Shown: one piece after another, positions 4,441 to 52,475 of the stretch
Layout: the number at the start of each line of letters is the position of its first letter
Numbering within the stretch: position 1 is the first letter of the stretch
Position numbers and translations under genes: made by a program
Assembly: GCA_964621305.1 (NCBI GenBank)
Contig: CAZUOM010000001.1
Coordinates: 165,448 to 229,447 of the forward strand
Direction of reading: 5' to 3'
From: an uncultured Gammaproteobacteria bacterium
Lineage (GTDB): Bacteria; Patescibacteriota; Microgenomatia; UBA10105; UBA927
DNA: 64,000 nucleotides
The notes under the pieces: generated by a model
What the model was told of the DNA's origin: nothing
Databases searched by the model: none
Seen by the model: the letters and a program-made list of their open reading frames with translations, nothing else

Positions 4441-4565
4441 CCGTGAATCTAATATCTCTTTTTTCTACCGCTGTATTTGCCGCTGAAGTCGTTCTTTCAC
4501 CCGTACCCGATGAATTGGCCGGTTATATATATCCAGGCTTTCATCAGCCGAGTGTTAGCTTTGGT

Positions 4566-6368: not shown

Positions 6369-6443
6369 AAAGCGTGAAATAACAGAACAAATACCGTATA
6401 CTTACACTTCTTGGCTCAATAATATATCTTAAAAAAAAGGCCT

Positions 6444-12152: not shown

Positions 12153-15100
12153 TCACCGTTTGGTTCCCGAAACCGGAGTGACATCGGGGAATAGGAGGTT
12201 TTTCAAGTCCTTTTGTGTATAGCGCTGCTCTATCAATTTAAATTCGTTATCTGATGTCATCATGAGGGTACGCAAACGAGCCGCGTTACCTAAAACGTCG
12301 GCGACGTAGACGCCAGCTTCATTGGCAAAACGAATCCCGATCGTTTCCCCAAAAAGAAATTTTGACGAGTATAATAAGTGTTCAGATTTTGATATATGTT
12401 CCCATTTAATCTGACTTTTATCAATAGTCCTACAGGTACTTTTTTCTGTTTTCAAACAGGAGGCCACTGCTCTATCGATCAATTTGCCTTTATTGTATCT
12501 GCCTACAGTAAGGGCCCACTGCGTAGCTTCGGAAAATTCCGGAGCCACGGATGAAGCGATATAATTTTTGATCCACGCCATATACATGGATCCTATGAGA
12601 ATGTTTGCCGTGGGATCTCTCTTCCAATAGTCTTTTTGTTCCACAAGACGTTTATGCACTCTGGCTACTTCCAAGCGCTGCGGTCCCTCTGGCATGTTGC
12701 TGATAAACTCTGGAAGCCTGCGAGTCATATCACCTGCAGCATCCTGCCCTATTTGCATGAGGCCGAAGTATCCATTTCCATGAACATATCTGCCAAAGAG
12801 CGATTCACGATGGATCTGGGCCATAAGAATTTCCGGCGGAATACCAAAAAGATCTGCTATCTGGATGATGCCGAGCGTCTCGGACATCGTTCCCAGGCCT
12901 GCCTGGGGATAAAGTTTAGTAAGCAAAGCAACTAGGTCCTGATGCCGTTGGTTGATATCTGGGAGTGACCTCTTTGGAGATGGAGCAAAGACTTTGGGCA
13001 TTAGATGAGGCCGCGTTAATCGAATGACTTCTTCATCCCTGTGGTGGGTAGGCGACGGGTCTATCGGGATAAAGTTTGCGCAAAGCCGCTGATGTAAAGG
13101 TTCACGCGCGTCCCAGCAAAAAGCTAAAGCAACGAAGCTCCCTGGCACAATCCGTAGCAGTATCATCCGGACAGGTGTATTGCCATTTCCGGCTTGCTCT
13201 ACTACTTCTGTCAAATGCGTGGCGAAGTATATTGACCGGGCAATAGCGCATACGATACTTTTTCCAATGCTTTGGCCTTCCCCGCTAGCCGATGTTCCGG
13301 CAGCATGGACTTTTGATATCAGGAATGCTCTGCCTGAACAATCATCTTGCAAGCGTGATAGATTCTGCAAACCATGCCACATCGTATTAATTGTCCGAGA
13401 AAACATGTAGCCGGCTAGCGGCATCTGCCAAAAATCCCACTGGGGATTGAAAAACGAGATCACAGCGCCTGCAGCCGGCAGCGCCACGTCCATCCAGTTA
13501 CGCACCTTCCCCTCTGCATCGGAGATGCCTTTATCCGGATGCAAAAACTCGGGTGTCCCAAATCTTAGTACGTCTTTTGCAAATGAAACCACCTGACGCG
13601 CAATGGAAAACAGATTGACCGGAATAACCTTGGCATCTCCAATCATCTGACCGACCCGCCCAAATGAAGCGTGATACCAGAGGCGGGCAATACCATACCC
13701 CCCTATTGGCCCCCACGTCTGGAATACGTCAATATCTGCCGGATTAGGGGCGATTCCGCCGGCCTGGATGGCTAAGGGGATTGCAAAAAGACCGAGAACT
13801 TCAAAAAACGTCGCCGTAGCCCTCTGCCGCAGCGAGATTGACGGATCGGCCGGATCTGCCCGCCAGGGGGTGGCCGCGCCGGGGAGGACAAAAAGGGCAG
13901 TATTTGCGGCAAAATGCGCCGCGCGGCCGATTGTATCAAGAATCAGTGCTGGCATCGTCGCGCACGGATCTCCCCTCTGACCGTCATCCTGGGCCAAAGC
14001 GCGTGGCACAAGCTGCAGCGATAGACACGGCTGCCGCCACGTCTTCGGCTGGCTTGATGGAACCGATAGTCTTACCGACATGACATTAGCGACCGCATAC
14101 GACAGCCTCGTTAAATCATCGTCATGCGCTTTGACCTGTTCCTGAAGAGTCGTCTTTGCCAATCCGCGGGCTAAGCGCAGGGCTGCCAGATACTTCCGCT
14201 GCGCATCGCCGATACGACCGGCTGCAGCAAGCCCATCAGCGGTTGCAAGCTGCTGGGAAAGTTGGGCTACGCCAAAAGCAATCATATTTTTCTTCCTTTG
14301 CAACAGAAAATTTGTTAACTGGTTACCAAGATGATCTTTTATATATGATGCCGTTGATCTAGATAGCGCAAGCATTTCTACCATCTTTCCCTGTCTGCCG
14401 AGGTCCTTGATATTGCCTGCGGCTGCAAACACGACGCGGAGAAATGAACTGCACACCGAACAGCTAGTTTTATCGGCCGCAACAGCCGCAACCGCCGCTA
14501 CCGGAAGGACCTGATTGTACGGAATATGATGAAAAAGTGTCATTGCAGCCGCGTATTTCATGGCATCGGCAAACATTCCTATTGACTGGTGAGTAAATCC
14601 GGACGAATGCGTCACAATGATACCTCCAGGCTTTCCACCAAGTGGCAGGAGATGTATTGCTTCTGGTTCAAGCGCGTGTCCTTCCTCATGCGTTAAAGTG
14701 CCATGCGCTCTTCCCAGGTCTCTGGCTAATGAACGATTTAGATACACCTCGTCACCATTAAATGCTCCGGCAAACGATACACTTTCGTTGACTAAAAACA
14801 CGCGCCGGTAACCAAGAGGTGCGTAGTTGTGGAGGGCAATTGCCAATAGAAAAAACTCATCCGGTGTTTTCGGCTCCACGACAAAATCCTGAGGATGGCG
14901 CATCTGCTCATGTCCTGTTTCAATGCCCGCCGCCATAGTCACGCGAGCTTCAAAATTTGGAATGTCCTGCTTGTTGGGGACTTCTGTTTTTTTCACGCCG
15001 AATTTCTTGCGCATCTCTTCAGCACGTTGACTTGCTTCTTTGCGTGCCCCAAGGACTGCAATTCTGCGGCCAAAAAGGCTTTCTGTAGTCAATTCCCCAC

Positions 15101-18100
15101 GACGGGACACTGATACATTCACTAAGGTCATAAGCGGAATATGCGCATCAGCATACGGCGCAGCACCCGTGGTTGTTTCAAGATATTTCATGAGCTGACT
15201 ATTGCTGATTCCGGCATAGTCGGCGGCATTGATTTTCGTTTTGAGTTCGATGAGCTCAGCGCTGTAGTGATTTTCCATTACCCTCCAGTAATCATCATTC
15301 TGATCCCAATCCGTGGGAAGGCCATAAAAGGTAAACTCCGGATTGGTTTGCGTCAGAGCCTTGTATGCTAGAGCTTTGTAAAATTCTATGGCTATGTACT
15401 TTTGAATCGTGGGTAGGTAGTCTTCTTCATGGGCAAATGACGTACGGCCCTGGATAAGTGGGAGCGGGATCTGAATCACAAGCCCAAGCTCATCAATTAG
15501 CGGCCAGAGCGTTTTTGGTATCAATGCTTTGTAACTATCCGGTATATCCGACACTTTTCTCCCGCCGGCGTCAACCACTTTGGAAAATAATCCTTTTGTT
15601 TGCGTCATCCGGAGGAGTCCGAAATTATTTAGCGGTACCTCAGTGAGTTTCTCCGTGTTCTTCATGTCATAGATTGCCTCTTTGGCCCCTTTCTCATTGA
15701 TGAGCGAAATAGCGAAGCGATCTGTTTGGGCCATGGCAGTGTTTTCCCGCCAGGATTCAACCGCCAGATACTGGTCCAGTTCAGCGATGGTCCGGTCGGC
15801 GTTTCTGATGCGTCTCACCAACAGGCCCTGTTTGACCCGGCTGTCCCTGATCCGGCGGACACCCGTTACTCTGCGGCCTACATACCTTCCGTTTTTATCC
15901 CGGTCAACAGTAACTGTAAATTGATAGGCGAGCTTACCGTTGTTGTTAACAAACTCAACCCGGTCGACGCCTTCGTAGTAACTGTCTAGTCCGCTGCCGA
16001 AAAACCCACCACTGGCTTCCTGCAAACCTTTCTTCTTGGTTGATTTCCGAAGCAGTAGCACCAGCTCCTTATCCGCACCAGTGCCGTCATCATAAAATTC
16101 CTCTACAGACTCTTTCCCAAGCGGCCCGTCCTCTAGATAATAGGCAATGGTCAACTCTCCCCGTGAATTGTCTACGGTTGCATCCTGGGCGTTTTGGACT
16201 GCTTCCGTCGTGTAGGTTCCCGGCGGCCGCTTGGTACGGGCTTCAACAGCCAGCCGTTCCTCCCCTTCTGGATCTTTCGGCGGGAGACTGTCAATATCGC
16301 TAAAAAGCTCTTCCGTGTCCATGACTTCGTTGCCCTGCTTATTAGTGCGGTTGGCATTTTTAGCAATCAACTGGGTCAGGTAAGCGCCGTCTTGCGGCAG
16401 AGCTATTTCACTACCCTCATACACCAGCCTCTCGCGGGTAGGTAGTTCAGGCACGCGGTTGGTCAAAAATATAGCAAAACCGCGGGCTGGGCCGAGCTTA
16501 TTGTCCGGCTGTGGGGCGCGGACAAAGTCGGCGAGTTCTGCTGACGAAGGTTTGTTTAATGCAGTTGCCATCTGACGAAAGTAATCATCGCGAACTTGTG
16601 GGTCTTTCGTCGTAATTTTGCCTAGTTGATCTAAGATCACCCCAAGTTTTTCCGCTCCACCGGCATCAACAGCCGCATCCCACATCCTCACAAGCTTCTC
16701 CCGGGCTCCCGCTGTGTTATTTACAGCTTCCCGGTAACTGTTGAGAAAATTTGATAAAGTCGGCAGAAGCGTCGCATGCTGAGCAGATTTCACCTGCCAA
16801 CCAAGGGCAAGCACCTCCAGCATCGCTTCGTTCCACCCGTCCACAGGTATTGCCGGATCAGCGACAAGAGAAACAAGGGACGAAAAGAGATTGACTATAT
16901 AGTTTTTTCGGACCGCGGCGCTTTCCTGATGAAGAAGCGGGCCGACCCGATCCATATGGGCTTTCGCTAGATCCGTCATTCGACGAAATCTTGGTGCTAT
17001 GTTATCGAAGGGCAACTGTGTGGTTGTATCTAATTGACCTCCTTGGACATGCGCGGTGAAGCGCCTCCGGAACTCTGCATCTTCGGCTTGATAAAGTTGA
17101 CTAAGAGTTGAAGTAATTTTTTGTTCAATATTACCACGGTATTCTTCTGGAGCAGCATCAAGGAGGGGTTGATATCCGGAACGAATCAGGGCTATCCGGT
17201 CATTTCGCTTGGAAAGAACTTCGGATTTCCATGTATCGTAGAGCTTCTGTTTTGCGGCAATATCCGCTTCGTTTTGCGCTGGAAACCTCTGCCGTTGAAC
17301 CAAAAGTGCTGCCGGATTGACAAATCGTACATCATTGGGATCCGACTCGGATGCAAGCACAAAAGTGTCACCGTTTGCCTCCATCAGGGAATAACCGCCG
17401 GGAATACTTGGTGCTATTACGTTTTCGGGTCCGGTTGTATTTTGCACGCGCCATCCGCCAAGCGTCCTCATCAAGGAATATTTGCCGTCGACAGTAATAT
17501 ATTCCTCCCCACTAGCAAGATTTCCCTTGCCTACGTACACAATCTGCGCACGTCCGTATGGGGCGGCTCTGTTGCGACCAAACCACTCATCCGGTTCAGA
17601 GGTTGGTAATCTGGTCAAACCAACCGTATCCCACCAACCGGCAATGAAGTTTGTCTCACTCCCTGATAAAAGATCAACAAGCCTGGTTTCTGGCCCGGAT
17701 GATTTTTCCACTTGTTCAACTACATAATCGCCCTCCAGGCGAAAGTTAAGTCTAGCACCAAATGTTGGCGGGTTTGAAGAGTACGTCAGACTCAATTCTG
17801 ACGATGGGCTTCGAACGACTCGATCAGAGCTTCTATCCCAAATAGATTTCTGGTCTTTATCATACCGCTCCCAGAAACGTGGAAGCATGTCGCTTGCCAG
17901 AAATTTGTTCAAATTCTTGAAGGTATATACATCTTTCCGGGTACCGTCCTGGCGGGAGAATTTAGCCACTTGATAACTCGGCCCTGATCCTATTTCAACT
18001 ACAACATAGTCATGCTCGTCGTCAGATGAAACAAATATATTATCCATTTCTATCCCAACGTTTTCCCCATCGATTTTCGAAATGCTAACGGAAACCCCAC

Positions 18101-21100
18101 TGGGCAAACTGTTTTTACCGATGATAAATTTACCTGTCGAATCTATTTCTATGTGGTCGGCAGGATTTGCCGGTGTCCAAGCGACGTAATCTTTTTTATC
18201 CAACGAAAACAGCGCATACTTGCCGCTCTTAAGCTTTACGATCACGACATCTGCGTATGTGTGAACGCTGTAGGAGTCAATAGCACCCATGTCGCCAATT
18301 CGATCTTGAAGAATAAAATTGTTGGAGTTATTAAATACAAGCTCACTTTTATCATTAACATATACTATATATTTCCCGCTAGCTGAAAGTTCGATACGGG
18401 AGTCACTAGCGACACTGCCCATATTGGTAGTAAGATCCTGTTTAATATCATGAAGCAATACTGCTTTATGTCTAATTCCCGTCCCGAAAATCCCACGGAA
18501 AAGCGCGACGTCTTCAGACACCCGTACGAGTTTGTAGCCGGGCTGAATTACTTCATCAACTACCGGAAGCGCCATAGACAAGGGTTTTGTATCATCGAAG
18601 GTCAAGAGACGCTGTTCACCGGTTTGCTTCTCTATGACGAAAAATGAATTCTTCCCCAGCCGTGTCACTTCGACATATTCCTTTCCAAACGGCTGTTTAT
18701 TATCCGTGTCAAACAGCCGATACGATCCGCTTCCGTCTTTTGTGATCACGAGCCGGTTGGGAGCAGTCGGCGGCCGGATAGTCGTGATGGCCGACTGATT
18801 AGCTGCATCTGCCTGAGCGGCTACTTCGGCCGCGGAGAGCAAGGCACTCGGATCGTCCGGCTTCATATACATTATAGCTCCGGTCGTGTGATTGGAAAAG
18901 ACAAAATACCTCCCGTCAAAGACAACGTTCGTCATGCCGGCTGCCGCCTTCAGTTCAACTTCCGGCGTGTTTTCTCCCAGGTCAACGAAGAAGAACCGAT
19001 CCAGTGCGCCTTTACGGACAAGGTAGCGCTTGTTGATATCCAACGCATACCCAAAGTCTCGACCAACAAAATTACCATTATTAACTTCAGTCAGTTTGCC
19101 ATCTCTATCGATAAAGATCGCATTTCTCTTCTCTGAATAGGAAACAATTGTTCCCTTGAAAAATGTGGTATTTATCTGCCCGGTCGACGGATTGATGGCA
19201 GTTAGTTTACTAGGATGGGACGAATCCATAATCAATCCCAGATTCGCGTCATAATATACATTTGCATCGCCTGTTTGTTGCAATGGTCCCAAGTCTCCAT
19301 AGGGTTTGGCCGGAAGCGAATGCGTGTTTATGTTGTTTGCGTCAAATAGATAAAAAATCACAACATAGTTATTGGTATAAAATAGTCTCAATAGTATTTT
19401 TATTCGAGGTTTCGTCCCAAACTGATTAACAAAAGCCCCGTTCTCCAATATCCAAATCTTTCCATCTTCATCAGTCACAAAGACATCTACCGATCCGTCA
19501 ATATAAAAAGTTGTTACCGCCTGTGTAATTGATTTGCGATTTGGCATTTGCCAAATTACGTCACGCCCAGACCCGATGAGATAGATGCCGACGCGGTCGT
19601 TTTTGTCAACTACTACCGCGTACGCGCCGCTGGAATCAACCCGGATATGTTTGCCTTCAATTTGCTGACCGTTCTTTAAGTCCCATAATATTATCCTGTC
19701 CCTATCCTGAAAAAGCATAACTGGCGCATGCGGGTGGATTCTCCAAACAGGCTCTTTCAACGAACTGACAGATGTATTAGTATTAAGGATACTTCCTGAA
19801 ACAGCATCTATAATAAACGTATGCTGATCTTTTGACGCAGTATCCTCAGTCTGATAGATCAGATATTTCCCGTCGCTAGTGAATTGAACAGAATTTTGAA
19901 TGACTTGTTCATTGACAACTGACGGAGCATTTGTTTTAAAATTATTGGTTAAAAAGTGCTTTTGCCCTGTTTTGGTGTTTACGGCAATCTTGTACCCGCG
20001 TCCATATACCCACTGTTGGTTGGAAGATACAAGAAGCTCCTCACCTTTTAAACTACCTGTCAAAACCTCTGCTACATATCCACGGATATGAAGTAATATT
20101 TCAGTATGCATTTTTTTATCTTTATATCTAAAATAGCCCTTCCCAATGGGTTTTACCCATTCAACGTTATCAACAGATTTTGCAGTACCACTAAAAAGAA
20201 TCGGCTTTTTGGTCTCCGCATGAATGAGGATCCCGTTCTGGATTGCTACAAGCATTGGCTGTTCCGCCAGTGCCGTTTCTCCTGCCGCCGCGTCTAGTGA
20301 AACGAACATGATGTCATCCGGCTTAGCCGGATCGAGGTAGGCGGCTTTCTTAGTATCGGAATTTGTAAAAACAAAGTACTTGCCATCAAAGATAACTTCT
20401 GGATAGTCTGTTTCTGAAAGACCGGGAAGCACACGCGGCGAAGGGCTAGCCGTATTAAGACGCATGAGTATATATTGTCCGTTGTCTCCCGGCGATGCAC
20501 GAACAAAGAACCCGCCAGCTTGTCCGTCCCAGGCGCCGGTGTATTGTTGCTGGCTCGTGCCGCCACCGACATTTGCCATCACGACCACATGAGGGCGACG
20601 CCAAACCAGAAGGGTATCCCCTATACTTCCCATCACGGCCACATCACCGAATTCTAGAGGTGCCGGATTTGTGCCGGGCAAAACGTGCGCGTGATACGCT
20701 CTCTTCACTGTTGGTATCCGCGTATCAATAATGAGCTTATTGTCCGCATCCAAATAAACCGTCCCATTCCCACGCTGTCCAAGAAGATCAAGTTCGTTAG
20801 GAGCTAACGAAATCCGAGTCCCGACACCTGGAAAAGAAAAATATCTAACGTCCGTCTCAGAAAAAGATACAGCAAATAGCGCATTTTTGTTTAAATAATC
20901 CAAAGCCGGATCCCCCGCAATAAAACCTTTCGCTGCATCGTTATACAAATAAAGCTTGCCGTCTTTTGGATTAATGCTTCCAACACCACTTAATCCACCA
21001 CTCCCAAAAAAGCTGATAACTGATTCTATCGGAGTACCATCAGGAAGCTGGGTATGAGAAACTCCGTCTGAACTAAGGACTGCTTTTATCTTGTCATTGT

Positions 21101-24100
21101 AGCCTATGGCCATCGTGAGCCTCCCGGTTGGCTCCGTCATCAGATGCTTTGCATCGGTAATAAGCACCCGGCCGGTTGCCAGATCAACAAGCTGCATACT
21201 CCGCTTTCCCTTATAGTTAAGCGCTACGTAAGCAACATCTGCATAAGGATTTATCGCCTGGCTAACAGTAACATTTTTTAAGATTTCTCCCCTGGTATCG
21301 CTGGCAAGCCAGGAAGAAGGAATCTGAAGAGAAACAGACAGCGGTTTTTGGTCCGGCTTTTTCAGATTCACGATGCTCAGATTGGTTTCAGTTCTATGGT
21401 TACTATCTACTTCCAAATACGTCAGATATGTTGAGGTCGGAGAAAATGAAACATTTCCATAGATATTCTTGCTTGCGGCCGGGCCAGTGGTTGAAAATTC
21501 ACTCTCCGCCCAATATCTCTTTTCGTTTTCCGGCAGGAGGTGGATCACGGAGCCTATGATGTCCCATCCTGGCACTTTTACATACACCCATTGTTTATCC
21601 GGAGAATATTCGAAGACGAACCCCGGATCTGCCCGCGTAATTTCTGTCCAGCCAGCCGGAGCAACCCGGTAAAGGACTAGCGTGCCATCTTCAAACAAAA
21701 CTTCAGTATGATTGCCGGGCAAAAAATCAATCTTTTTAACCCTGGATTTCTGACCCAAAGTGTTGCCGGAGTTGTCGACCACTAAACGTCCGCTATAAAG
21801 ATCGATAAGCGTTCCTTCCGAAGTGAGGAAAGCATTGACTTTGGTACCCACTGGCGGCAGGGTATGGGTGACACCGGCAACTGCCTCTTTAGGCGGATCA
21901 ACTAGATACCGGTTGATTGCCGCCGAATCAATCTCTCCCTCGCTTCGGACAAAATCTGCAAGTGAGAGTGCAATGCTTGGTGATGTCGGTACTTTCTCGT
22001 AACTTGTCACTACTCGGGACGAGGTGACGATATTAATTCGCTCGATTAGTCCTGCCAACTCTTTCTCTTCCAGGTCGCTCTGTGATCGGGAAATCTTTTT
22101 ATCGATTATTTCAAGAAGTCGCCTCATACCCAACTCCGGCGGGATGACGACGACACGGTCTGTGATAATAATGGGCAGCCGGTCACGTTCCGGTACTGTC
22201 CACCAGTCTTCTTTAACCTTGCGCACATGGTCAAATGATGCATCTGTAAATGGAGCTACGACGATCTGCGCACCATTGGCTAGCTCAAGTCCGCGGATTG
22301 GTTTGGCTCCGAACTGTTTCACTAAACTCGTTGCCCCTTCCCAGGCAAAAATCTTGGGATGTAAAAATAGTGCGGTTTTCCCTGTAGGTATGGCTAGCTT
22401 GGTAAATTGTCCGTCATCGGGAACAACGATGTATCTATCGGCAAGACTGCCGATTATCGGCTCGATTGCCTTCATTGTTTTTGTTCTGATAGAGGCGACA
22501 GCAGCTATTGCCTCAGGATTACCGTGCTCAATGCCTTCCAGTCCGACGATCATGGTATTAATAATCGTAAGATACTCAGCTTTTTGCTCCGGTCCTATCT
22601 CCGGTCTTTGGGCATATTCAACTAATAGATTTACAAGATGCATGACACCCTGTTCAAATGCCGTTATCTCGCCTGGGTTATTCGACTGGGGAATATTGAC
22701 CAAATCCCTGGCTTCAGAAACTTCAAAAAGCCGGCCCAACTCAATCATGAGGCCGCCTGGCATCGTTGAGGACTCGGCAAGTGTCTCGGGTATTACAACC
22801 GTCTCGATGACTTCACCGTTTCTGGCAAAGGATACTGCATGAGGAAGTGTGTCATCGGAAACTATCATCATGCGGTCAAGTTCAGCTTCAATGTCAAGCG
22901 GCCCGGGAGTTTTCGTTCCGGTTTTGGAGACCATCATCCGCGTAAAAACGCCAGCGTCCATCCCTGTCCCGTTATCAACAGTTGTAGTCCCCTGCTCGTT
23001 TACGAATACAAATATATGCCGTTTATCAACTTCTTTCGGGTCCGGAAGTTTCCGTCCTGCGGGCACAATGATGCGTTTATGCTCATGACCATTGACCCGA
23101 TGAGTTCCAGCATCCCCTACCTGCGTCGTCAGCCGCACGCGCGTTTCAAAAGGGAAGCGTTCTCTCAGCCGCCTATCGATTTCTTCTTGTGTTATGAAGT
23201 TTTCCGGTGTCGTCTGTTTAACTAACGGAGTTGATAAACGAAGTGCAAAAATAGTTCCGTGCGTAAACGGCTGCCCGGATTCTTTCTCAAATGCAGTTAT
23301 CTGCGCTTGGGCTTTGTCTCTGAATTCCTCTTTTGAAATCTCTTTAGCCGGTGAAATAAAATACTGCCCGCTTGGAGCCCGAATGAACGATTGGACAAAA
23401 AATTTACCGCCGTTTGCCGTCAGCACGAAGAGGGTGTCTTTCCCGTTGGGCTCAAGCCACCCGAGATTTTGCTTAACTCCCTTGGAAAACTGTCCAATTA
23501 TTGCTTCAGGAACCAACGCATCTCTACTGTTGCTAACCGTTTCTGCAATCCCTTGCACTTTCTGACGACCGCTTTGAAACGATATGTCAACGTCGGTTAG
23601 TGGATCCTCAAATGTTCCCGCATTGACCAGGTTGATGATTTCCGGCGTAAACCCGGTACGGCTCAATGATTCAAAAATTGCTTGTGCAGCATCTTTGCCA
23701 GTCAAGTTTATCGATAGACCAAGCTGTGATAAAAGCGTTGTTAGGGTTTTCCCGTCAACTTGCCCGGAATGCAACCGCTGCACAGCCCAAACGTAGTGGT
23801 CGTAATCGATACCGCCAAATGTCTCCGTCTGGTAGGCAAACGCGGTTTTACTCGCCAAGACCTCCTCATGCGTCGGACCGTTATTGTTGAGCCGTAGGAT
23901 AGGTAGCTGTTCTTTCTCTTCTACAAGTGTTTCATCCGAGGCGCGCAGAAGATTCCAGATATCTGAGACAGCTCCAAATCCGCCAATTTGAGGGATTGCT
24001 GCCCGTGCGGCAAATCCGAATGAAAACACGTCCGCTTTGTACTCTTGCTCATGTCGAGCCATCCATACCTCTAGGGCCGAGATTTTTTCGTTATCTTCAT

Positions 24101-27100
24101 GATTTACTATGCCAAAACTTAGAGATTCGACTAATGTGATAATTGATTTGATTTCACGTACGACAGATATGTTCTCCTCCATGATTCTTTTCGACCTATC
24201 TTTTTTTTCATTCGCAAAGCGCTTTGATAATCGGCGTTCTAGCTCGTCTATTTCGTTTAGCGTTAGTTGAGTCAATTCGTCATCGTGTAAGGAACGGCTT
24301 GTTGCAAGCTGGACCAAAGGATCAAGTTTTGGGTTGATTCTGTATTCAGTACGTACAGTCGTATTGTGGGCCACAATACCGTTGGCGACGAAATTGTGGG
24401 TGCCTTCTACTTCGATATCAAAGACCTCTTTGCGGCCAACTTTTTCTATCGACACAACCGTGTCGTAAAACGCATGGCCTGCTCCGGCGACGGCTATCCT
24501 GTCTCCTACCCGAAGCTGGGAAACCCTGCACCATTGACCGCCCTTGACATGGTCCATGCGATTTGATAAGATGTATACGGTTTCTTCACCCCGCGCAAGC
24601 GGGGCTTTTTTGCCTCCTTTGTCAAGCCATACGCGTAATTTTTCGATAAACAGATGGGGAATTTTTCGGATTTCCCACGCGGCGTTTTGTTCAAAACACA
24701 TCATGGTGAAATTCTTTCCTTGCGATTTAATCTGTTTAGCTAGATTCACAAAATCGCTGTCTCCGCTTACTACCACAACATCCGTAACACTTGCCAGATA
24801 TGACTGGATATCCCAGGCCATCTCTACGTCAAAATTACATTTGTAGATGAAAGCGCCAGTTTTGGGATTGGTAATAATTTTCTTGAGCGGCTTTGTGACG
24901 ACGCGATATCCTTCGGTAGCGCGATCGGAAATGTAGGAGGCGGCCTGCGTTTTCAGTTTCCCCTCGGGCGTGCCAACGTAATAGCCCGCATAGACAATGT
25001 CGCCACTTGCGGAAAGAAGCCGTAAGAACTTTTTCCATGATACTCTCCAGCCTGCACGGCGCTGTGCATAAAATACATTTGCATCGTCAATGAAGACTGC
25101 AATTTTGCGCTTAACCGATGGCCTGCTTGTTTCCCTATAATACGGGTGAGTGCTCGTTGTCTCAATTTTACGGCCCAAAAGCGTAGAGAGTTTATATACA
25201 TCCTGCATCCCCTTTACCAGCAATTTGTTTACATAAGCAGGAACGAGGCAACCGGACCGCTCGTCCAATGTCAAAATTTCATCGCCCTCCTCGATCTCGT
25301 CGATCCGAACATCTTCCCAGCCTTCATCAAGACTATGGCCGGCAAGCCAGTCCTCATCAAGTCCTCCAACATTTCGGAGCATACCGCAAACCATCATTGA
25401 CAGAAGTCCCAATGTCGCCGTATCATCACCATCAGTGCCACATCTTGTATTTATCGCCAACCCATTCCGACTCTCCCCTGACCAGCTCCGATCGCTCTCA
25501 GGAATCTGCCAGGACATTGGCCAAGTTCTGTTCGCCGGATTCGTAGTGGCGCCCATTGCGGCCAAGGGTGCGGATGCAGCATTCCTTACATTGGGGTTGA
25601 CATCCTCCGTCGCCTTTTGGTACATTGAACTGGTCATTGTCAGGAAACTCGAAGTATGAATGTCGCCCAAATAAATACGATCTACCTCGTCTATATTCTG
25701 GCTGCACTGCTTGCTATCTTTTTCCTGCTGGCAGTTTATTTCTCGTTTAAGGATATCGACAGCAGGCGGGGTCATTCCTCCAAAACCTCTTCCCGATAAA
25801 ACGACATCGCCAAATCCGAAGGATTCGGCAATACTTCCAATTATGGCAATAACTCGACGAAGCAGAGACCACTGCGTTAAAAGGTCACGTGTTTTCCAAT
25901 CTCCGTCCCCTCCTCCTATTTTTACTTTTTGATCTTTGATTTTTGATTTTCTCCGCCGTCGGCGCAGAATAGTGTCCCCCGTCACGCACTCGGGCAGCCG
26001 GGCTTCCGGCACCGCGCCAGCCGGTGTTCGTGGCGTTACTGGTCTTGCTTGTTCTGCTTGTCTTGCTTGTTCTGCCACCTCGCCGGGGGCAAGCGGGATT
26101 TGTTGCTGGCCCGGTTTGAGAGCGAGCGGTTCGGCCGGCAAAACTTCATGAGCGATCTGCCGAGCAAGCTTCTCGACGCGCTGATCATACTTGCTATTCC
26201 AAACCGCTTCACCAAGGATGGCTATCTCCTCTTTGAGCGCATCTTGAATTGCTGCTTTTACAAAACCCACAGCGTAAGGAAAAGGATATCTCTTTGCATT
26301 TTGAGCTACTTCCTTCCACTCTCCGTAATAAAGGAAATTACCTTTGTCCGAAAGAACTCGTTCGATGTGCTGTTCCGCTTGAGAAATTGAGGCTTGTTGT
26401 TTACTAACAACAATTTCGTAAATCTGCTGTGCCCTCTCCCGTGCTGCCTCCTGTACCCGAGCCCGCTCGTCGGCCGTCAGTTTCGCGATTTTGTCAGCTA
26501 CGTCTTTTGACGTGAGTATTGCCCCCCGAATTGAATTCACGACCTCATTTTTATCAGATGTTTTTTTCAGTGCATTTTCCCCAACCTTTTTCCACTCATC
26601 ATTCAACCCAATATTGTCACCGCGTATCAGATCAAGGACTTCATTGAGTTTTCGGACCTGCTCCAAGCGCGTCCGAAGTTCGTTGATGCCATTTTGAATG
26701 CTCGCAAGATCCGCCTGATTCACGATTGGAACTGCGATGCCTAGTTCTTTTGCTTGATCGGAAAGATCATTGAATACTTTAACCGCGCGATCAGTATCTG
26801 ACTGTGCTTTTTCTGCTGGTTGGGCTGTAATTGATTCCGGCCCAGTAGGTGTGTCTGTGGTTGGGGTCACCGGTTCAAATAGGGCCTCGGGGAAAAGGGC
26901 CGGGTGGCCGGAACCGCCGCGACCGGCTAGGTTCCCCCAATAAACCAAACCACTCCCTAAAAGCTTAAACCAACTGTAATTAGCGACAATATACTTGAGT
27001 TGGGTGTGATTGGTTATGGGAATCTTGGTTCCCTCAATGGGATCGGCTTTCCCTAACCCCTGGGCTTGCGCAATCACATCCTCACCTCTATTGAGTACGG

Positions 27101-30100
27101 ATTTGTCGCCAAGCTTCCTCATGGCATAGACACCTACGTGGGTGCGAACGGCTGTTCCTTCTTTAAAAACAACCGGATTACCCCAGCGTAGTGGCGCTGG
27201 CGCACCAATAATCGGGAGCGGAATCTTAGATCTGATAGCTTCAACAATCCCCGGATTCGGATCAGGAATTCTTGGAATAACGGCGATTACATTGTCGCTT
27301 GCGTCTTTGGCAATCACTAGTCCATCCTCAAGCGCCAACTCCACGCTATGTACCTGGGATGCCTGAACATTGGCTTGGGCGGCAGAAGCAGATGGAGGAG
27401 CTGGTTGCGGCCTGACGTTTTGCCACACCCAATTGACTGACCTGGCAATATCGTATCCAAACGACCAGATGCCAAACTTAGGTAGCAAGAACCAACCGAT
27501 CGGAGATCGCGTAATGACAAACCGACTCGTTTCCGCCCAACCGGCGGGGCTAGTCGCATAGGTCCAGTTAAAGAGTCTGCCGCCACGGCCTAGCCCAAAA
27601 AACGCGGCATTGGTCCATTTGCCGATCGGCCCTCTAGCACCCATCCAACCAAATCTACCTGCGGTTTCCTTGGCCACGTCTATACCGTAAGCCGTACGCA
27701 ATTGGTCATCCGAAAGCGTGAAATTGAAAAACTTGCGGAAAGTAGGCCACTGTTGAACCTGCCCCCCTTGTTTGGTAGCCCGATAGGAAGCCGTAAGAAT
27801 CGTAAGGATTCGTTTGGACGAACTGTCTAACCGCCCTTCTCCAACAGCTGATTCAAGATCAATATCCGGATTTGCCAATAGCTCTCTTGCCACGGCAACC
27901 TCCTCGTTGACCACGGCATCAACAGCGCCTTCGGCAACCCTGTGTTTGGCCGCATTCCGGTAGGCATCCTTCCACTGATCGGCTTGCTTAACTATGTCGC
28001 TATCGGCCGATTCGTAAGCTGCGGCTATACCAGCCAAGAGAACCGCCTGGTCTTCTTCGGATCGTTCCTGCGCGCGCACTTGCTCCCAGCGGAAAATAAC
28101 CGCACTTGCCCTCTTTATGGCCTCCCGCCGGTCTTTGCCTGGTGAAGGGGCTGATGTATCTGTTCGAACTTCACCTTCTAAAGATTCTGGCTGAGAAAAA
28201 AGAAATCCAGTAAGCTGTAGAAATCGTTGATCATTGATATCTGAAAAATCTCGAAGATAGGTACCTATCCCCCTTTTACTCTCATAAAGATCCCGTGCTT
28301 TCTCCCACTGGCCCAATCTAGCAATCTGATATGCGTCAGCTTCTCCAATTACATCAACCAACTTGCCAAATCCATCGATAAAAGGTGTTTCGTATTGAAG
28401 AGTATGTAAACCGAGCTTTCTTGCAAACCAACGCACCGAAGCTTCCTCTAAACTAATTGGTTGCCCATACAGTCCATAACCGGATTTTCCCATACGAGCG
28501 CCATGGAAAGCCTCTTCAAACGCCGTTCTGGCAAAACCATCTGGATGCTCTACGTTAGAAACATTAATGATCGCCTGGCCCAATGACGGCTCGAAAAATC
28601 CATAGGCCGCCTCCAACCGAGCATCTATCTCTTTTACTGTATGACCACTTGCAACACTAATGGCCGTAAATCTAAACGATGGTAAACTTCCGTCAGCGAT
28701 CCCAAAAGTCTGTTCATAAGTACTTATTTTGTCATTGAGCTCTCCTATCTTTTCCTGTGATCCTGGTGGAAGTTGAGCTGCTGCATTTCTTGCTCTCACC
28801 AAAAACCGATACAGAGCTAAAAACAATTCCGGATCCTGCAGTATATCTTTGCCTAGCTGAAGACTTGGTAAATTGTTCTGCGTCAAGCGTGCATTTATCT
28901 CAATAAAAACAGCTACGTCGCCCGGAGTTAATTTCTCGTGTGGTTTCCACTGAGCAAATCGTTGTGCTAACTCCACCGCTTCTTGTTTAGAGGACTGCCG
29001 AAGTGTGTCGGGTATGTTTCTGTCAGAAAATTCAACATCAGCCTGACGAGCGAGGTCTGGACGAGCGGACGCAATGTTATCAAAGATCTCTAATGGCGAG
29101 GGCGTACTAGCAGGAACCTCCTGCGGCCCCAAGCGCACCGGCGTTTCCGCTCCTTGACGGACAATGGATGCGGCGATGTCAGATTGAGAAACTTTGCTAT
29201 TGATGATGGCGGTGCGATCATCGATGCGGACGGCATCCTGCAAGTTTTTGCCTCTTACTGCTTCCGGATTAAAGCTAAGCGAAGGGTTTTCTATTAATGC
29301 AATTTCTGTCCGCTTGCCGCTGTTGTAAATCCGATCATAATAGAACTCCTTGGCTCTATCGCTCAGCAGCCCAAACTCCGGTGTGTCTTTGAGTCCGTTG
29401 ATAAACTCCCGTGCCCGTGCCGCTGCCCGGTCAATAGTCGCTGCACCTGACTCTAGGCCATTACTCAAGCTGTCACTCCCGCCGGCTACACGGTCATAGA
29501 GGGATTTCCACTTTTGTGAGACATCTACCGGCTTGCCGTCTGCATCGAGTACAAACGATCGTGGTTTTCTCCGAAAAAGCCTGTCTACGAAGCTTTGTTC
29601 ATTGCTTTCAAGAACCAGCTGGTCAATCGTATTTTTTACCAGGTCGTCATACCCTTGGGCTAGTGAGTGAGTGAGTGCTTCTTGTCGAGTTCCCTGTCTG
29701 GGTCCCTGGTCTTTGGCAGCCAGGCCTTCGTTTTGGTCAAAAATCTTCTCTGCGTCAGCAAGCGTGTACGATGCATCCGCCTCACCCAACACATAGACTG
29801 TTGCGTCGCTGGCTATCTCCCGCGCCCGTCCGATGTCCTGGACCAGACCGTTCTTGGTGGTTTTATATTTACTCGCTATGATATACTGTGCGTCGCTAGA
29901 GGCAGACGATCGACCGCTTCTTGGTACGTCACCTTTTCGAAAAACTCCCGCAATATCTGTACCACGGCCGGAGCCCTGGGTATAGACGAGGATAAACCGC
30001 CTGTCACCGCGACTGCCTACCTCGTACTGCCGCAAAAACTCCTCGAGCGCCGTCCTGCCTTCTCTTCCAACGATGGAGTGATCCGGATTACCGTTTTTAT

Positions 30101-33100
30101 AGACACGTACTTTTTCACTTTCTGCAATCGTATTGTCGTTATTGATGATAATTACTTCAACGTCCTCTCCCATCTTCTTCCCTTCGTCTACGATTTTCCG
30201 CTCCAATATCCTTCTGTCTGTATCCACCGCATCGAGGATGACGCGAGCGGCTTCCCCTTTTTGCAATTCCTTCACGGCAATTTTTTCCGTGCTATCAATC
30301 TCCTTCCACGTAAAATCCCGAGTCCTGTTTATCTGGCCAAAAATCTGCTCCACAGAACTTCTGTCAGGCTGAAAGGCCTTCATCTCCATGCCCAGGCTCA
30401 ATCGCGCATCCAATACGACTCCATCTGGTGTGCCGGAAAATCCGTACACTCGCTGGGAATAATGGCCGCTAGCTATAATCTGCTTCCATGTGGTCGTCTC
30501 GCCTTGCTCAGAAACCGTAACGCGGGATGTCTGTTTTCCTGCATCTTCGTGAGAAATCGGCCGATTGTTTAACGCTTCCTGGATGCGATTGCCGACCGTA
30601 TCCAATGAAAGTGCCGCGTAGGCATCCTGGGGCCGTGTGTTCTGCAGCCGGCCCGTGCCGTCGCCATAGACCAAATCCGCACCCGGCGACGGCCTGCCGT
30701 AACTGTTCGACGGCCGGCCAACGTCGGCGATAATGGCGTTAACTACACTCAAACGTACGGACAAGTCTTGGACAAAGGGTCTCGGCGCATCCGGAGCATT
30801 CCGGTATACGTTAAGCTGAGCAATTATCTCCTCCGGTATGACGCGCCGATTTCCGTTTTCATAATGGGTGATATGTTTCTCCTGGGCCCAGGTCTCAAAT
30901 GCCGGATCCGACTGGGATTTTGTGCGATTGTATGACTGCTCCGCAGCTTTTAGAACCATTTTGAGACGCATTTCTTGCGCTTTATTGTCCGCTGACAGCC
31001 GCACCCCTCCCTGATCATCGATAAATAGTTTTGATCGCCCGCCTTGCTGCTTTTCAGTTATCCCTGCATCCACAAAATCCTTCACTTCTTGCGAGTGATA
31101 TATTTCTTCAAACGCCTTCACTATTTCCGGGTTTGAATCTACAACCAATATCTTTTTACCCCCGGAGGAAAACCGCGTGCTAGCCAAAATCATGTCAAAT
31201 TCGTCAATGAGGAGAATGGAATCTTTGGTTGCGGAGAGAAATGCTCGCGAGAGCTCATCGCTTGCGCGCGAGGCGTGGTGCTCGTAGGGCGTGTCTGCCG
31301 TTGCCGAATACACAACGTCACTAGAAGCCATGGCAGCTGCCCCTTCGCTTCCGCCTACGGTTTTCCGGTTCCCTTTACCATCAACATAGGTGACTTGGCG
31401 ATTCTGAATATCATAATAGACCGCCTTGACACCATTTCTTGCGTGCACTTCCGGCGGGTACTGGGCCATCATGCCCTGGACATCGGCAAACGTCGTAGCC
31501 ATGACATGGACTTTGGACCCGGTAAGTTTTGCTTTGACGTCGGCGATGGCGTTGAGGAGAAAAGCGGATTTGCCCAAGCCCGTCGATCCGTCATAAAGGA
31601 CTCCCGTGATGTCATCTTTGACCGATGCGTCAAACACCGCGTCGTAGAAAATGCCCGATTGGTCAGCGCGTTCTTCATTGGGACCGACCATTTTGCGTTG
31701 TTCCTGGTTTCCGGTTTTTCGGGATAGTTCGTCTGACCAGATCGTTTCTATCTCTCCGAGGAGCGCACTCACTTCTGTCAGCCGTGCTTTTGCTTCCGGC
31801 TTGGGCTCGTTTTTCCCATCAAGGGAAACAAGCTCAAGCTCTCCTGTGTCTTTGCGTTGAATACGGAACCCGTCGTCGCGAAGCTGTTTCGCCACTTCCC
31901 CTAGCCGGCCGGTTGTATCTGCCAGCTTTTGCCGGGCAGCTCCCTCGCCTCTATTGATTATGTTGTCTATCGTTTTTCCTAGTTTGATACGGATTGACTC
32001 ATCTGTTTGTTTTTTAGCTCGGTTATACAACTCGTCTGCTGCCTTCTCGTTGGATTTTGCCGACTCCAATGCCTTTTCCAGGTCCGCAGCCACTGGTTTG
32101 CCTTCGGATTTAAGAAGATCAATCCTGCGTTCCAGTATCTCCCGCGCTTCATGTGACGCAACCATCCTGGCTTTGGCATCGAGCGCGCTTTTTTTCAACG
32201 ACTGCCCGGACACTCCATCTCCAATGGCAACCGTTGCCGCCACCAGTGGGCCAGGGTTTCTCTTGGTTCCTATAAAAACCTCCGCCACTTTGCGACGCAG
32301 GCCGCCGCTTGCAGTAAATTCTTTCTCGAGAACGGCAATTTTTTTGTTGGCACTGTCCCAGTCGGCAGCAAGCTCTACCTGCTGATCCGCGCGTTTCGTA
32401 AATTCCTGCGCATCTTTTTCTGATCTATTTTCCTGCACAAGCTTCTGATAAGCTTCCTCTCTCTCCGCTTGATCTTTCTGCAACTGTTTAAGCTCATCCA
32501 TTACTTCCCGCTGGCTCTTTGTCCACTCGCGGCTCTCCAGTTTCTGCCGGGCGTCAGCCAAGCGCGTAAATGCCTCTTTGTAAGCCGTAGCGTCTGCGTC
32601 CGGTTTTTTTGCGATTTCTTCAAATGCCTTTCGTTTTGCTTCAAAGTCTTTATAGTCTGCGTTACCGCTTGCGCGGTCAACTGCCTGCCGGATAAAATTC
32701 CCGGGGCTAGTGCGGATGGCCGCCTCTTGCCTGACGGCAGCATCGGCGGCATAGAGCGCCGATCGGGCCGCATCAACTTTTTCTGGCGTAATCAGCGACT
32801 CTAGATTGTTAGATACCCTCAGGCTCCCGTCTTTTTCAAATAAACTATTCCAGCGTTTTGCTGCTTTATCAAATTCCCTCTCGACCCTCGTCCTGTTTTC
32901 CTCTTTTATGGAAAGCTCCCGCGCCATGGCATGGGCCTGGGCTTCTGCTTTGCCGGTATCGATGATGGCTGCGCGCAGACGCGTTTTTGCTTCTTGTAAC
33001 CGTTCTGGCAATTGCTCGGGCGCAGCCGTAAGAGCGTCTATATCTGCAAGTGCTTTTTCAAGCCCGACACGAGAACCGACTGTTTTCCCTCTCTCTCCTA

Positions 33101-36100
33101 ATCCTTGTCTCAAGCTTCCTGCGGAAAGCCCTGCGGCGCCCAACTGACTGGCGCACTGATCCGCACTTGCGCCGCCGGAAAACGCCGCAGCACACGCCAC
33201 TGCAGCTTGCAGAGAATTGACGGTCGTATCTGCCTTTTGAATCAAAGCTTTTGCATTGGGATTAAATGCCGCCTGCCTGGGTTGCGTCAGTCGCGCAAGG
33301 GAAACGCCTGCCATTGCCAGGGCAAGTTGACAGTTACCAGAACCGATTGATTCTTTACTGCAGACATCGGCAGCATTCCAAGAAAACACCACGGGTCCCA
33401 GATAGTGATTGATCCTTTCCAACGCTCCGGATATGCCCTTCGTAGGAACCAGACTCGGCTTGAGGGAATTGCTGACAGCTACGACTGCGTCGCTACTTTT
33501 TTCAACGAGAGCTAATTTTCCGCTTGCATTTCCGGCTTGGCCCACAAGTGCGAGTGCTCCCGCCGGTGCATTTTTGGCTACCTCAAGTTGCTTAATCCAT
33601 TTGGCTGTCTGGCTAATGCTCGTTGCGCTGGAGAGTCCGGCAAACGTCGTCATCATGGCTGAGCGCGCGCACTCTCCTCCGTCCATCTCATGCCCGAATG
33701 CGCACGCATGGGCAGTCTGTTGGAGGCTGTCGCCGGTAAAGTAGAGTCCGACCGCTGACCCGCCCACATTCAAGGCAACGGGAACGGACAAAATTTTTGC
33801 TCCGGCTTTGGCCAACTGAAAGAGTTGACCGCCCGGAGCTACCAACGCCCACGTCGACAATACCGGTTTTCCGTAGCTCATTCCCCAACCACGAACCATA
33901 TCCAGCCGTGCAACTGCCTGATTTTCCTTGGTTTCATTCGGATCCCACATCCTTCTTTCAGCATCCTTTATCAAAAATTGTCCCTGCAAGTATGATCCGG
34001 AGGTAAAATTATTAACCCCTACAACAAAGTGTTCCGCAAGATTAAAATTGTCAATATCTTTTTTCACCCGCACAAAATCCGCTTTGCCGGCAAAGATGTC
34101 CTTTGCGTTAACTCCCTCCCCTTTGGCAGACAGAATATTGGCAACGCTATCGCGCACAGCTCCCATGGCGATGAACTGCTCAACGAGAAATTGTTTGTCA
34201 GTTTTGCCGGCATTGTCTGGGTCGCTACTCCACTGCTTATAGGCAAGAGCATTTTTCCTCTCTTTTTCTAAATTGGCACGGTCTTCTGCCGATAGTGTGG
34301 CGGCATACGTATCGACGACGCGCTCAACGCTTGTTGGCGCATTATCTTTTGTTCTCGCAAGATCCTCCCGTAACCGTATCGCATTCACTGCTCCAGAAAG
34401 CACCCCGCGCCGCAGCCACCCTGGGTCTGCTGATATTGCGGCAGATACTTCGCGCGACACTAAGGCCCCAGTGGCAGCTTTGTCCTCCATCTCAATTGCC
34501 GTAGCAAGCTCTCGGACGACTTCATCGCGGGAGGTTGATTTATACCGTTTTGCGGCCGCTAGCGGATTGTAATATTCAGCGTCCCTAGTGATTAGTTCGG
34601 CGGCAAAGCCCCACTCTGCTTGTTTGGCGGGGCTAGATCCCAAAAGCTGCGATCCTCCTTCTACAACCGGAAGCATCTTGAGAGCATTGAACGTCTTGAC
34701 AACCGCGTTATCTATGAAGCTCAGCGACCGTATGTTCTTATCAACGCGCAACATATCGACTTCTCCCCGCAGCACCTGGCTCAAAATAATTCCTTGAGTA
34801 TCGTCGCGGATTGCTCCGATATCTCGAAGATCCACTTCACGCAAAATGAGGGCTTTAAGTTGTTCGAGCTGGAATTTTTCAGGCGTTGCGTCGATTTTCC
34901 CTCTTTTCCAATCCCTGTAAATGGAAGATTTTTCAACTGCAGCCAACTGGCGCAGCCTCTCGGTCTGACTCTGGGCCGCCAGCAGCGAATCTACTCGCAT
35001 ATCGATAAACGAGTCCCCACCTGCAGTCCGTACCAGAGCGCCGCCAGTGATATCGTTGAGTGTGCTTCCGAGCCAAATGAGCGGATGTTTGCCAAAATCT
35101 CTTGCTTCAGTCATGTGCTTCTCAATTTCAGTGGGAAGTCTTTCCCCTCTTTTCCATTCCGACACTGCTTGCTCTTCCTGACCTAAATTTTTTAGGCTGT
35201 TCCGAATGCGGTTAAGGGCATCTTCTTGGATCTTTGTAAATTCTTCTATAGATAACGCGCTACTGCCGGAATCGGCCTTGTATTTCTCAAAAATTCTTTT
35301 CCTATTGTTCTGGACAAGTTGATTCTCCTCATCTATTGCCCGGATAAGATTGGCTCGTTGATTTTGTACGACAGCCGTGTCAAGCAGAAATCCTACCTGT
35401 TCTTTTTCCAAACAACTCGTCAAGCCAGTCCCCAAATTGCCTTTGCACGCCGCAAGCTTTTGGAGGACAATGTTTGCTTTGGAGGCTATAGAAAGGCCAC
35501 CAAAAGCTATATTCTCAAGTGAAGCTTTCGCCCCTTCAATCATGTCTGCGTGGCATCTGGCATAGTACCGGCTATCCTGCCCGGTACAAACGGTGTCAAC
35601 GATTGCTCTTGCCGTTCTATCAATTACCTCGGTAGAGTTCAAAAGTGTTCCACTGCCACATTCATAAATATTCGAATCGCCTTGAAACTGGATGTATCTA
35701 TCCGTATATCTTTGCGATACGCACGATCGTCTGACTGATTCTGCCGGGACGTAGGTCGTCCTGGTCTTCAAATCGATAGTCAACCCTTGATCCAACACGT
35801 TTTTGGTCGTTTCGGCACAAGTTTTTTCCTTTCCCGCGCAGTAGGATGCAATGGCCCGATTCTCCTGGGCAATCGGATCAACGCTCGATATGTTTCCTGC
35901 GGCGATAAGCTTCTCCTGTTTGGTCTCACATTCTTTCGGATCAATTCCAAGCGCCTCAAGCCGCCGACACAAATCTCGTGCAGCAGCCGCTCCCGCGTTC
36001 GGGGTAGTTTTCGTCCCGATCCCGTAGTCGACGCCAGCACCTGTTCCATATACTTTGTTATCAAATGATATGGCATAATCATGCGTTCCTTCTTTTTTCG

Positions 36101-52469: not shown

Positions 52470-52475
52470 ATATAG

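Follow-up and report, generated by a model that had tools for sequence, protein, structure and literature searches.

A predicted class-1 intein with a nested NYN nuclease domain in a giant gene of a Patescibacteriota genome

Introduction

Inteins usually carry a LAGLIDADG or HNH homing endonuclease between their splicing lobes. In a 64,000-nucleotide (nt) stretch of contig CAZUOM010000001.1 (positions 165,448 to 229,447; assembly GCA_964621305.1, deposited as an uncultured Gammaproteobacteria bacterium and placed by GTDB in the Patescibacteriota), hereafter the window, a giant gene is interrupted in frame by an apparent intein that holds a NYN domain in this place. The locus thereby raises the question of whether the element can splice, and of what such a nuclease does inside it. 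On balance, and with moderate confidence, we favor the reading that it is a mobile class-1 intein whose NYN module acts as a new type of homing nuclease.

Results

An intein within a giant open reading frame

The host gene is a single open reading frame of 8748 amino acids (aa) on the minus strand (12153..38399, TTG start), and the 542-aa intein, in frame within it, corresponds to residues 4138-4679 of the giant protein (24363..25988, minus strand, as are all intein parts described here). Translation across the element reads ...PEARLPE, then CVTGDTIL ... EVFDIEVEGTHNFVANGIVAHN, then TTVRTEY; with longer flanks, and with slashes marking the intein ends here and below, it reads ...PAGAVPEARLPE/CVTGDTIL...GTHNFVANGIVAHN/TTVRTEYRINPKLD, and the fused host junction after removal of the intein would be ...CTGCCCGAG^ACGACTGTA... 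Block A (CVTGDTIL, 25965..25988) begins with the nucleophile Cys1 (codon 25986-25988) and is followed by a polybasic tract, RRRRRKSK (25941..25964), that opens a loop. The N-terminal splicing lobe resumes after this loop (WEDVRIDEIEEGDEILTLDE ... TTSTHPYY, 25119..25319) and includes block B (25137-25160) with T278 and H281, while the C-terminal lobe (EVFDIEVEGTHNFVANGIVAHN, 24363..24536) contains blocks F and G with D524, H531, H541, and N542. The C-terminus (...VFDIEVEGTHNFVANGIVAHN/T) has the penultimate His, the terminal Asn (codon 24363-24365), and the +1 Thr (24360..24362), the predicted transesterification nucleophile of the C-extein, that class-1 splicing requires. A first-pass annotation, made from the letters alone, had placed the Cys codon, the Asn end, and the +1 Thr exactly where the translation of the giant reading frame puts them, and had quoted block B (TTSTHPYY) correctly. 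Its block F ('RVGDRIAV'), on the other hand, is an earlier strand of the C-terminal lobe; alignment to DnaB inteins gives blocks F and G as EVFDIEVEGTHNF and VANGIVAHN.

Profile searches with the 542-aa intein returned Pfam Intein_splicing (PF14890; E 2.9e-16, 60.1 bits relative to a cut-off of 35.8), NCBIfam intein_Cterm (TIGR01443; E 2.6e-9, intein aa 521-542), and partial matches to the NCBIfam models of intein-containing DnaB, GyrA, and RtcB. By sequence, the nearest solved splicing lobes in the PDB are those of the Npu DnaB intein (E 4e-11) and the Ssp DnaB intein (E 2e-10). In an AlphaFold model built on seven family members, both lobes were modeled at a predicted local distance difference test (pLDDT) of 84-94, and Foldseek aligned the model with the Npu and Ssp DnaB inteins at a template-modeling score (TM) of 0.78-0.79 (4O1R, TM 0.78). 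Judged by sequence and predicted fold, the element is a class-1 intein on every such test, and the earlier description of a canonical intein is upheld by the agreement of profile matches, invariant residues (see below), and predicted Hint fold. After translation of the giant protein, Cys1 would form a thioester that the +1 Thr would attack; Asn542, aided by His541, would then cyclize, releasing the 542-aa element and joining the host halves. We infer this class-1 chemistry from the fully conserved catalytic residues together with the fold.

A NYN nuclease domain between the splicing lobes

Between block B and block F, and thus nested between the splicing lobes, lies a predicted NYN (PIN-like) nuclease domain (24648..25106, intein aa 295-447) with the acidic residues D301, D387, D410, and D412, along with N304 and K383. 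The Pfam NYN profile (PF01936) matched at E 3.4e-18 (67 bits relative to a cut-off of 24.2) over its positions 1-141 of 145, and the NYN motifs IAVFIDDANVFY and VVVSGDSDFVNL are present. The region was modeled at pLDDT 80-92 over aa 291-458 with a PIN-like three-layer alpha/beta fold, and its best Foldseek partner was 2QIP (E 2.7e-8, TM 0.76), which is also the nearest solved structure by PDB sequence search (family profile against 2QIP, E 7.5e-24). The linker from the NYN domain to the C-terminal lobe (24537..24647) varies in length across the family and includes a low-pLDDT segment (aa 459-480).

NYN and Intein_splicing were the only Pfam matches to the 542-aa intein up to E = 1, with no LAGLIDADG, HNH, or GIY-YIG module among them. 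The first-pass annotation was therefore right to describe a NYN/LabA-like domain without a classical endonuclease module, as the Pfam match, the predicted fold, and the invariant acidic residues agree. Of the recognized homing-endonuclease folds (LAGLIDADG, HNH, GIY-YIG, His-Cys box, PD-(D/E)xK, and EDxHD), none was found in this Pfam search.

The annotation's further suggestion of a nuclease repurposed from elsewhere gains support from a free-standing NYN protein, P0059, that is 47% identical to the window's NYN module and so closer to it than most other intein NYNs are (26-36% identity, except for the sister copy P0016 at 55%). The gene for P0059 was recovered on four contigs (L138 2303-4417, L139, L140, and L141), and on each of them it follows ruvC and ruvA and precedes ruvB, its start overlapping the stop codon of ruvA. 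This wedged gene may be either (i) a partner of the resolvasome or (ii) a free-standing selfish nuclease gene. Other free-standing NYN relatives adjoin a RadA-like gene or a phage integrase. We propose that the intein module was recruited from free-standing NYN genes, with this member of a ruvC-ruvA-NYN-ruvB operon as the nearest; its place in a Holliday-junction operon points to DNA as a substrate.

A family of NYN-inteins in CPR bacteria

Six proteins that share the Hint-NYN-Hint layout and are 31-41% identical to the window intein were found by protein search; the four with a named source came from Patescibacteria-group bins and were annotated only as 'NYN domain-containing protein'. When one genome of each GTDB species was scanned, 303 stretches were confirmed, with several loci in some genomes, and most of these fell in the candidate phyla radiation (CPR; e.g., Sungbacteria, Giovannonibacteria, Kaiserbacteria, Taylorbacteria, WWE3, Daviesbacteria, and Gottesmanbacteria). 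A HMMER search of 1.84 billion representatives returned 59 clusters at E<=1e-30. We extracted 73 distinct NYN-inteins, nearly all from Patescibacteria/CPR and roughly 25-60% identical to one another; they are 336-463 aa in length, the window copy being the longest at 542 aa. The nearest intact copy, P0016, is 49-55% identical to the window intein across all three parts and retains the catalytic residues, and the closest relative overall, P0022 on contig L142, is 67% identical.

All 73 inteins share D301, N304, K383, D387, D410, and D412 of the NYN domain, as well as T278, H281, D524, and H531 of the splicing domain, of which T278 and H281 were not imposed by the pattern used for selection. C1, H541, and N542 were likewise invariant, although that pattern partly required them. 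Thr occupies the +1 position in 70 members, Ser in two, and Asn in one. Since the catalytic residues are invariant at only about 25-60% overall identity, both predicted activities, splicing and nuclease, are under purifying selection. A polybasic tract (RRRRRK...) follows block A in 40 of 40 NYN-inteins scored, while none of 39 inteins lacking such a tract carries a NYN domain; the loop that it forms would probably help in binding nucleic acid.

The hosts fall into three classes by insertion site. In the main class, the intein interrupts a repeated motif of giant 'GNVGIGTT' proteins (...KLHV(E/V)GQ/intein/TYI.GNVGIGTT), and a single host protein can contain as many as three inteins, all at that motif; in one family member, the junction after intein removal reads LHVEGQ^TYISGNVGIGTT. 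A minority class, which includes the window copy, lies in Pro/Ala/Thr-rich linkers of nonrepetitive giant proteins at a '(L)PE/T' junction (e.g., P0016, P0070, L014, L018, L069, and L074), and the junction DNA CT(C/G)CCCGAG/ACG is common to the window, L018, and L074. Finally, the inteins of L009 (5797-9189) and L029 (5833-9075) split the Walker A loop of SMC (GPNGSGK/SN). L009 is from a Kaiserbacteria genome and L029 from a bin deposited as Saccharibacteria, and their scaffolds are related but their NYN subtypes differ. When the L009 exteins were joined in silico, they gave a contiguous SMC_N match (E 2.6e-65). The contiguous match and the classical intein habitat indicate that the SMC-hosted members are true inteins. 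In view of these classes, the location that the first-pass annotation had called unusual is so for classical inteins, but is routine for NYN-inteins, which reside mostly in giant CPR repeat proteins and also in SMC.

No paper was found that connects inteins to NYN domains or reports inteins in CPR giant proteins, in a literature search that left most subscription journals outside its reach. A preprint on giant genes and a paper on polyvalent proteins do not mention inteins, and no paper was shown to link the terms 'NYN domain' and 'homing endonuclease'. The NYN-inteins thus make up a large CPR/Patescibacteria family for which we found no published description, although an earlier one may exist.

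Exchange of nested modules on one scaffold

Comparisons within the family indicate that NYN modules have been swapped between nearly identical splicing scaffolds. P0003 and P0005, inserted at the same site, are 94% identical in Hint-N and 89% in Hint-C, but only 29% identical in the NYN domain. Similarly, the lobes of the two SMC inteins are 64% and 56% identical while their NYN domains share 27%, and the L029 NYN has a closer counterpart (52% identity) in the linker intein L014. The same discrepancy is seen among paralogous inteins of a single host protein (Hint-N, 82-89%; nested domain, 20-31%).

Besides NYN, at least two further conserved domains, each with invariant polar residues, occur nested in this polybasic Hint scaffold: type A (e.g., P0046 1606-1954, P0070 145-553, and L065) and type B (e.g., P0014 778-1098, P0086 1628-1964, L074, and L076). 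Neither has relatives in the PDB, and their Pfam matches were all subthreshold; they may be further nuclease or effector modules. The family thus displays a sporadic distribution, multiple insertion sites, and a nuclease history independent of that of the intein, all of which are signs of mobility.

An antisense gene pair in the loop after block A

From block A to the rest of the N-terminal lobe, the window intein has 215 residues, compared with 15-35 in its relatives (about 100 in P0070), and 192 of these roughly 215 residues are absent from every relative, a feature that the first-pass annotation had missed. They correspond to an in-frame insertion of 576 nt (192 codons; 25320..25895, minus strand, intein aa 32-223), with Trp codons on both sides and a pLDDT below 50, around which the Hint fold is still confidently predicted. 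P0022 on L142 reads ...RRRKRRKKRRSDDEWEDVPIKD without the insertion, and its DNA homology to the window starts at 25329, at the insertion edge. Because P0070 has a shorter expansion (about 70 aa) in the same loop, the loop following block A appears to be a tolerated insertion point. At the downstream edge of the insertion (25317-25361, minus strand), we also observed a local duplication, LDEDW / LDEGW (CTTGATGAGGACTGG / CTTGATGAAGGCTGG, 30 nt apart), that echoes the acidic-Trp motif normally closing the loop.

Translated in the sense frame, the insertion has a single database relative, P0162, encoded on the 897-nt contig L078, which matches window positions 25396-25753 at 77% nucleotide identity; there, the frame equivalent to that of the giant gene contains a stop. 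On the plus strand, by contrast, the insertion resembles a small transcription unit. A sigma-70-like promoter site (TTGACA-18-TATCAT, 11 of 12 positions; 25397..25426), at whose -35 box the L078 homology begins, precedes ORF1 (25435..25659; GTG start), which would encode a 74-aa protein of a 'RDIGQVLF' family with two transmembrane segments, 82% identical to its L078 homolog. ORF2 (25656..25799), overlapping ORF1 by ATGA, would encode a 47-aa peptide with a single transmembrane segment, 30 of 32 aa of which are identical in L078. A hairpin lies just after the ORF2 stop (25804..25834) and scored as terminator-like only on the minus strand. In the ORF2 region, 19 of the 22 nucleotide substitutions relative to L078 fall at plus-strand third codon positions, which are first positions of the giant-gene frame. 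The conserved reading frames of the insertion evidently lie on the strand opposite the giant gene.

In L078 (252-751), the same gene pair is found downstream of a DegT-type aminotransferase gene, and five CPR-type metagenome loci encode distant ORF1 homologs (57-66 aa, 'RDIGQVLF'), each directly followed by a 32-35-aa peptide with a single transmembrane segment; this conservation of order indicates that ORF1-ORF2 is a real gene pair. There is no second copy of the pair within the window. Several other identities for the insertion were rejected: (i) a genuine sense-frame protein domain, as there was no Pfam match, pLDDT was below 50, and P0162 is itself an antisense artefact; (ii) a ribozyme or self-splicing intron, as Rfam over 24000-26400 at E<=1 gave only a subthreshold RsmY match; (iii) a transposon or miniature inverted-repeat transposable element, as there are no terminal inverted repeats, the only target duplication is a shared TGG, and no second copy exists in the window; and (iv) a nested second intein, as Cys/Ser...His-Asn boundaries are lacking.

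Most simply, the coding DNA for the intein loop would have acquired a small transcription unit in inverted orientation, so that the polybasic loop of this copy would have taken up 576 nt of foreign DNA while the host reading frame stayed open. The captured segment would owe its survival to a length divisible by three and to the absence of stop codons in the frame of the host. Over part of the segment, the antisense codons are aligned with those of the host, a register that creates stops only where TTA, CTA, or TCA codons lie on the other strand. In sequence terms, the 542-aa element is a composite, 192 aa of which are a sense-frame read-through of a captured antisense cassette.

The host gene and its genomic setting

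The giant protein has a hydrophobic segment at its N-terminus, Pro-rich linkers, and an SLT lytic transglycosylase domain near its C-terminus, the last being the only Pfam domain found in its 8748 aa. A 1000-aa sequence across the spliced junction had no homologs among 5.8 billion proteins, and the exteins had no PDB or PHROG match. Apart from the SLT domain, the host is thus an orphan as far as sequence comparison reaches, and its earlier designation as a surface protein is a guess. By eye, we noted a Walker A/B-like pair (about aa 2270-2410), a GHKL-like 'NAQDA' motif (about aa 7400), and an HEEGH motif (about aa 7904), all of them candidates without profile confirmation. No immunity-like gene was seen adjoining the host gene.

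The flanking genes (a purine operon, NadE, NAPRT, and tRNAs) indicate that the window is cellular chromosome. Within the otherwise bacterial-looking purine biosynthesis operon are two tandem archaeal-type PurP paralogs (DUF1246 + DUF1297; 51414-53480, minus strand). ARAGORN called a 92-nt tRNA-Lys(ttt) within the purD (GARS) reading frame (57421-57512, minus strand), probably either a false call or an odd tRNA. It also called a tRNA-Thr(ggt) at 4369-4442 (plus strand) that overlaps the listed TTG start of a GDSL-lipase reading frame, whose true start must therefore be further downstream.

Discussion

Does the NYN domain drive homing?

The reading that we favor holds that the NYN nuclease, a PIN-like, one-metal enzyme with an intact active site in the slot usual for LAGLIDADG or HNH, would cut or nick DNA at intein-free sites, and that recombinational repair would copy the intein in. 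Homing of this kind would explain (i) the multiple copies per gene and per genome, (ii) the occupation of repeated motifs, 'LPE/T' linkers, and the SMC P-loop, and (iii) the independent turnover of the nuclease module.

A number of observations weigh against homing. Regarding the enzyme, the characterized NYN members MARF1 and Regnase-1 are RNases, as are the NYN-like YacP/Rae1 and PRORP nucleases, and we know of no NYN-family enzyme that makes site-specific double-strand DNA breaks; 2QIP, the nearest structure, is annotated 'unknown function'. Regarding the target, the databases contain no intein-free allele of the window host, and because its exteins also lack homologs, no target site can be defined; moreover, the intein sits in a Pro/Ala-rich linker, not in a conserved motif. 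In the main class, no unoccupied 'GQ-TY' site was found in the host proteins P0001-P0161 or the loci L001-L077, so the flanks may travel with the element and its spread could proceed by repeat recombination without a nuclease. Alternatively, all such sites may be saturated. Export of the host protein, if it occurs, would also count against homing, since a nuclease set free outside the cell would have no access to the chromosome. No NYN-intein was found in 2.9 million viral contigs, and carriage by phages was rejected on that basis. Two observations bear on the soundness of individual copies: on L142, a low-coverage contig, many stop codons interrupt both the intein and the giant gene around it (5701-7500), due either to decay or to sequencing error, and the 576-nt insertion in the window copy is poorly modeled and may have impaired folding or splicing.

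Two other explanations accept that the element is an intein. In the first, the intein splices, but the NYN domain is an RNase or other effector (a toxin, defense nuclease, or regulator) released from the giant protein, with the poly-Arg tract serving in RNA binding or uptake. We consider this unlikely. It would accord with the RNase activity of the characterized NYN enzymes, with the strong selection on the active site, and with hosts that in most cases are giant and probably exported, in CPR bacteria that live as episymbionts; the co-occurrence of the polybasic tract with nested domains, a slot that holds several unrelated domains in the manner of toxin cassettes, and weak PT-HINT (pretoxin-HINT) matches in relatives point the same way. 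However, the same architecture occurs in the P-loop of cytoplasmic SMC, a classic selfish-intein site with no effector logic, and the NYN domain is nested inside the Hint fold rather than C-terminal as in polymorphic toxins. Nor was an immunity-like gene seen beside the host, and the closest free-standing relative, in its Holliday-junction operon, suggests DNA as the substrate.

In the second, the family may be mobile, but the window copy is an immobile relic, stranded without a target in a unique linker and kept only by the need for an open giant reading frame and perhaps for splicing. The uniqueness of the host, which lacks homologs, and the single copy of the intein in the window fit this view, as do the apparent decay of its nearest relative on L142 and the foreign insertion, present in the window copy alone, if it is read as relaxed constraint. 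Nevertheless, all catalytic residues of both the splicing domain and the nuclease are intact in the window copy, P0016 has kept them as well, and the frame remains open over 8748 codons, so that we regard a relic as improbable.

That the Hint domain is instead an autoproteolytic processing module, similar to bacterial intein-like (BIL) or PT-HINT domains, that cuts the giant protein in two without ligation would suit a nonconserved giant host of the kind in which BIL domains occur, a site in a linker between large regions, and the relatives' weak, below-cut-off PT-HINT matches, but it is very improbable given the full intein motif set, the +1 Thr in 70 of 73 members, the best profile matches to true inteins, and the SMC-hosted members, which must ligate to give a working P-loop.

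Returning to the homing reading, its broadest form would be that the NYN/PIN fold is a new homing-endonuclease family driving a large, unreported radiation of CPR inteins, in giant-protein repeats and linkers and with swapped modules that include at least two additional kinds of domain lacking known relatives, and that the window copy holds a working antisense two-gene cassette in an intein loop within a giant gene. We advance this compound proposal only tentatively, as one with a real but less than even chance of being correct in full.

If the NYN domain is a homing nuclease, a new fold would join the short list of enzyme families that drive the mobility of selfish elements, families that have already been turned into genome-engineering reagents. 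The NYN-inteins also challenge the rule that inteins persist only at conserved sites of essential enzymes, as they thrive, with exchangeable nested modules, in the repeats and linkers of giant, fast-evolving CPR proteins. Natural intermediates (the NYN gene between ruvA and ruvB, the module-swapped scaffolds, and the SMC copies) make the gain and replacement of endonucleases by inteins testable, and the captured antisense cassette is a natural test of the size of loop insertion that an intein tolerates, which would be useful for intein engineering.

Comparison with known systems

BIL and PT-HINT domains resemble the window intein in having a Hint fold within variable, very large, and probably secreted bacterial proteins. 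Such domains are not known to have a nested nuclease and often lack the +1 nucleophile, and PT-HINT precedes a C-terminal toxin. The window intein, in contrast, has a complete intein motif set, matches intein models best and PT-HINT not at all, contains a nested nuclease, and is followed by a C-extein of 4069 aa that is not a toxin.

The closest solved splicing domains are those of the DnaB mini-inteins (Npu 4O1R and Ssp 1MI8), whose blocks F and G are nearly identical to those of the window intein (evfdl.vpg.hnfvan.iivhn). These mini-inteins are minimal or endonuclease-deleted and reside in a helicase, whereas the window intein has a NYN domain and the 192-aa loop insertion. The nested domain itself has the fold and the four acidic residues of NYN/LabA-like proteins (PF01936, 2QIP, and P0059), but differs in being nested in an intein; RNA is the substrate of the known NYN enzymes, none of which has been recognized as a homing enzyme.

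The NYN gene wedged between the conserved ruvA and ruvB recalls the free-standing homing endonuclease genes of phages (seg/mob-type), which likewise lie between conserved genes; invasion of mini-inteins by such genes has been proposed. Unlike the phage genes, the free-standing NYN may instead be a working RuvABC partner.

Finally, the endonuclease-bearing class-1 inteins, such as PI-SceI (VMA1) and the Mtu RecA intein PI-MtuI, share with the NYN-inteins a two-lobed Hint domain, C1, TxxH, His-Asn, and a +1 nucleophile, as well as a nuclease nested between the lobes, a sporadic distribution, and some P-loop sites, which in the NYN family are those of the SMC members. The NYN-inteins differ from them in three respects: (i) their nuclease is NYN/PIN-like rather than LAGLIDADG or HNH; (ii) they reside mostly in giant proteins, repetitive or orphan, and not in enzymes of replication or repair; and (iii) they combine a conserved polybasic loop with several unrelated, exchangeable nested modules.

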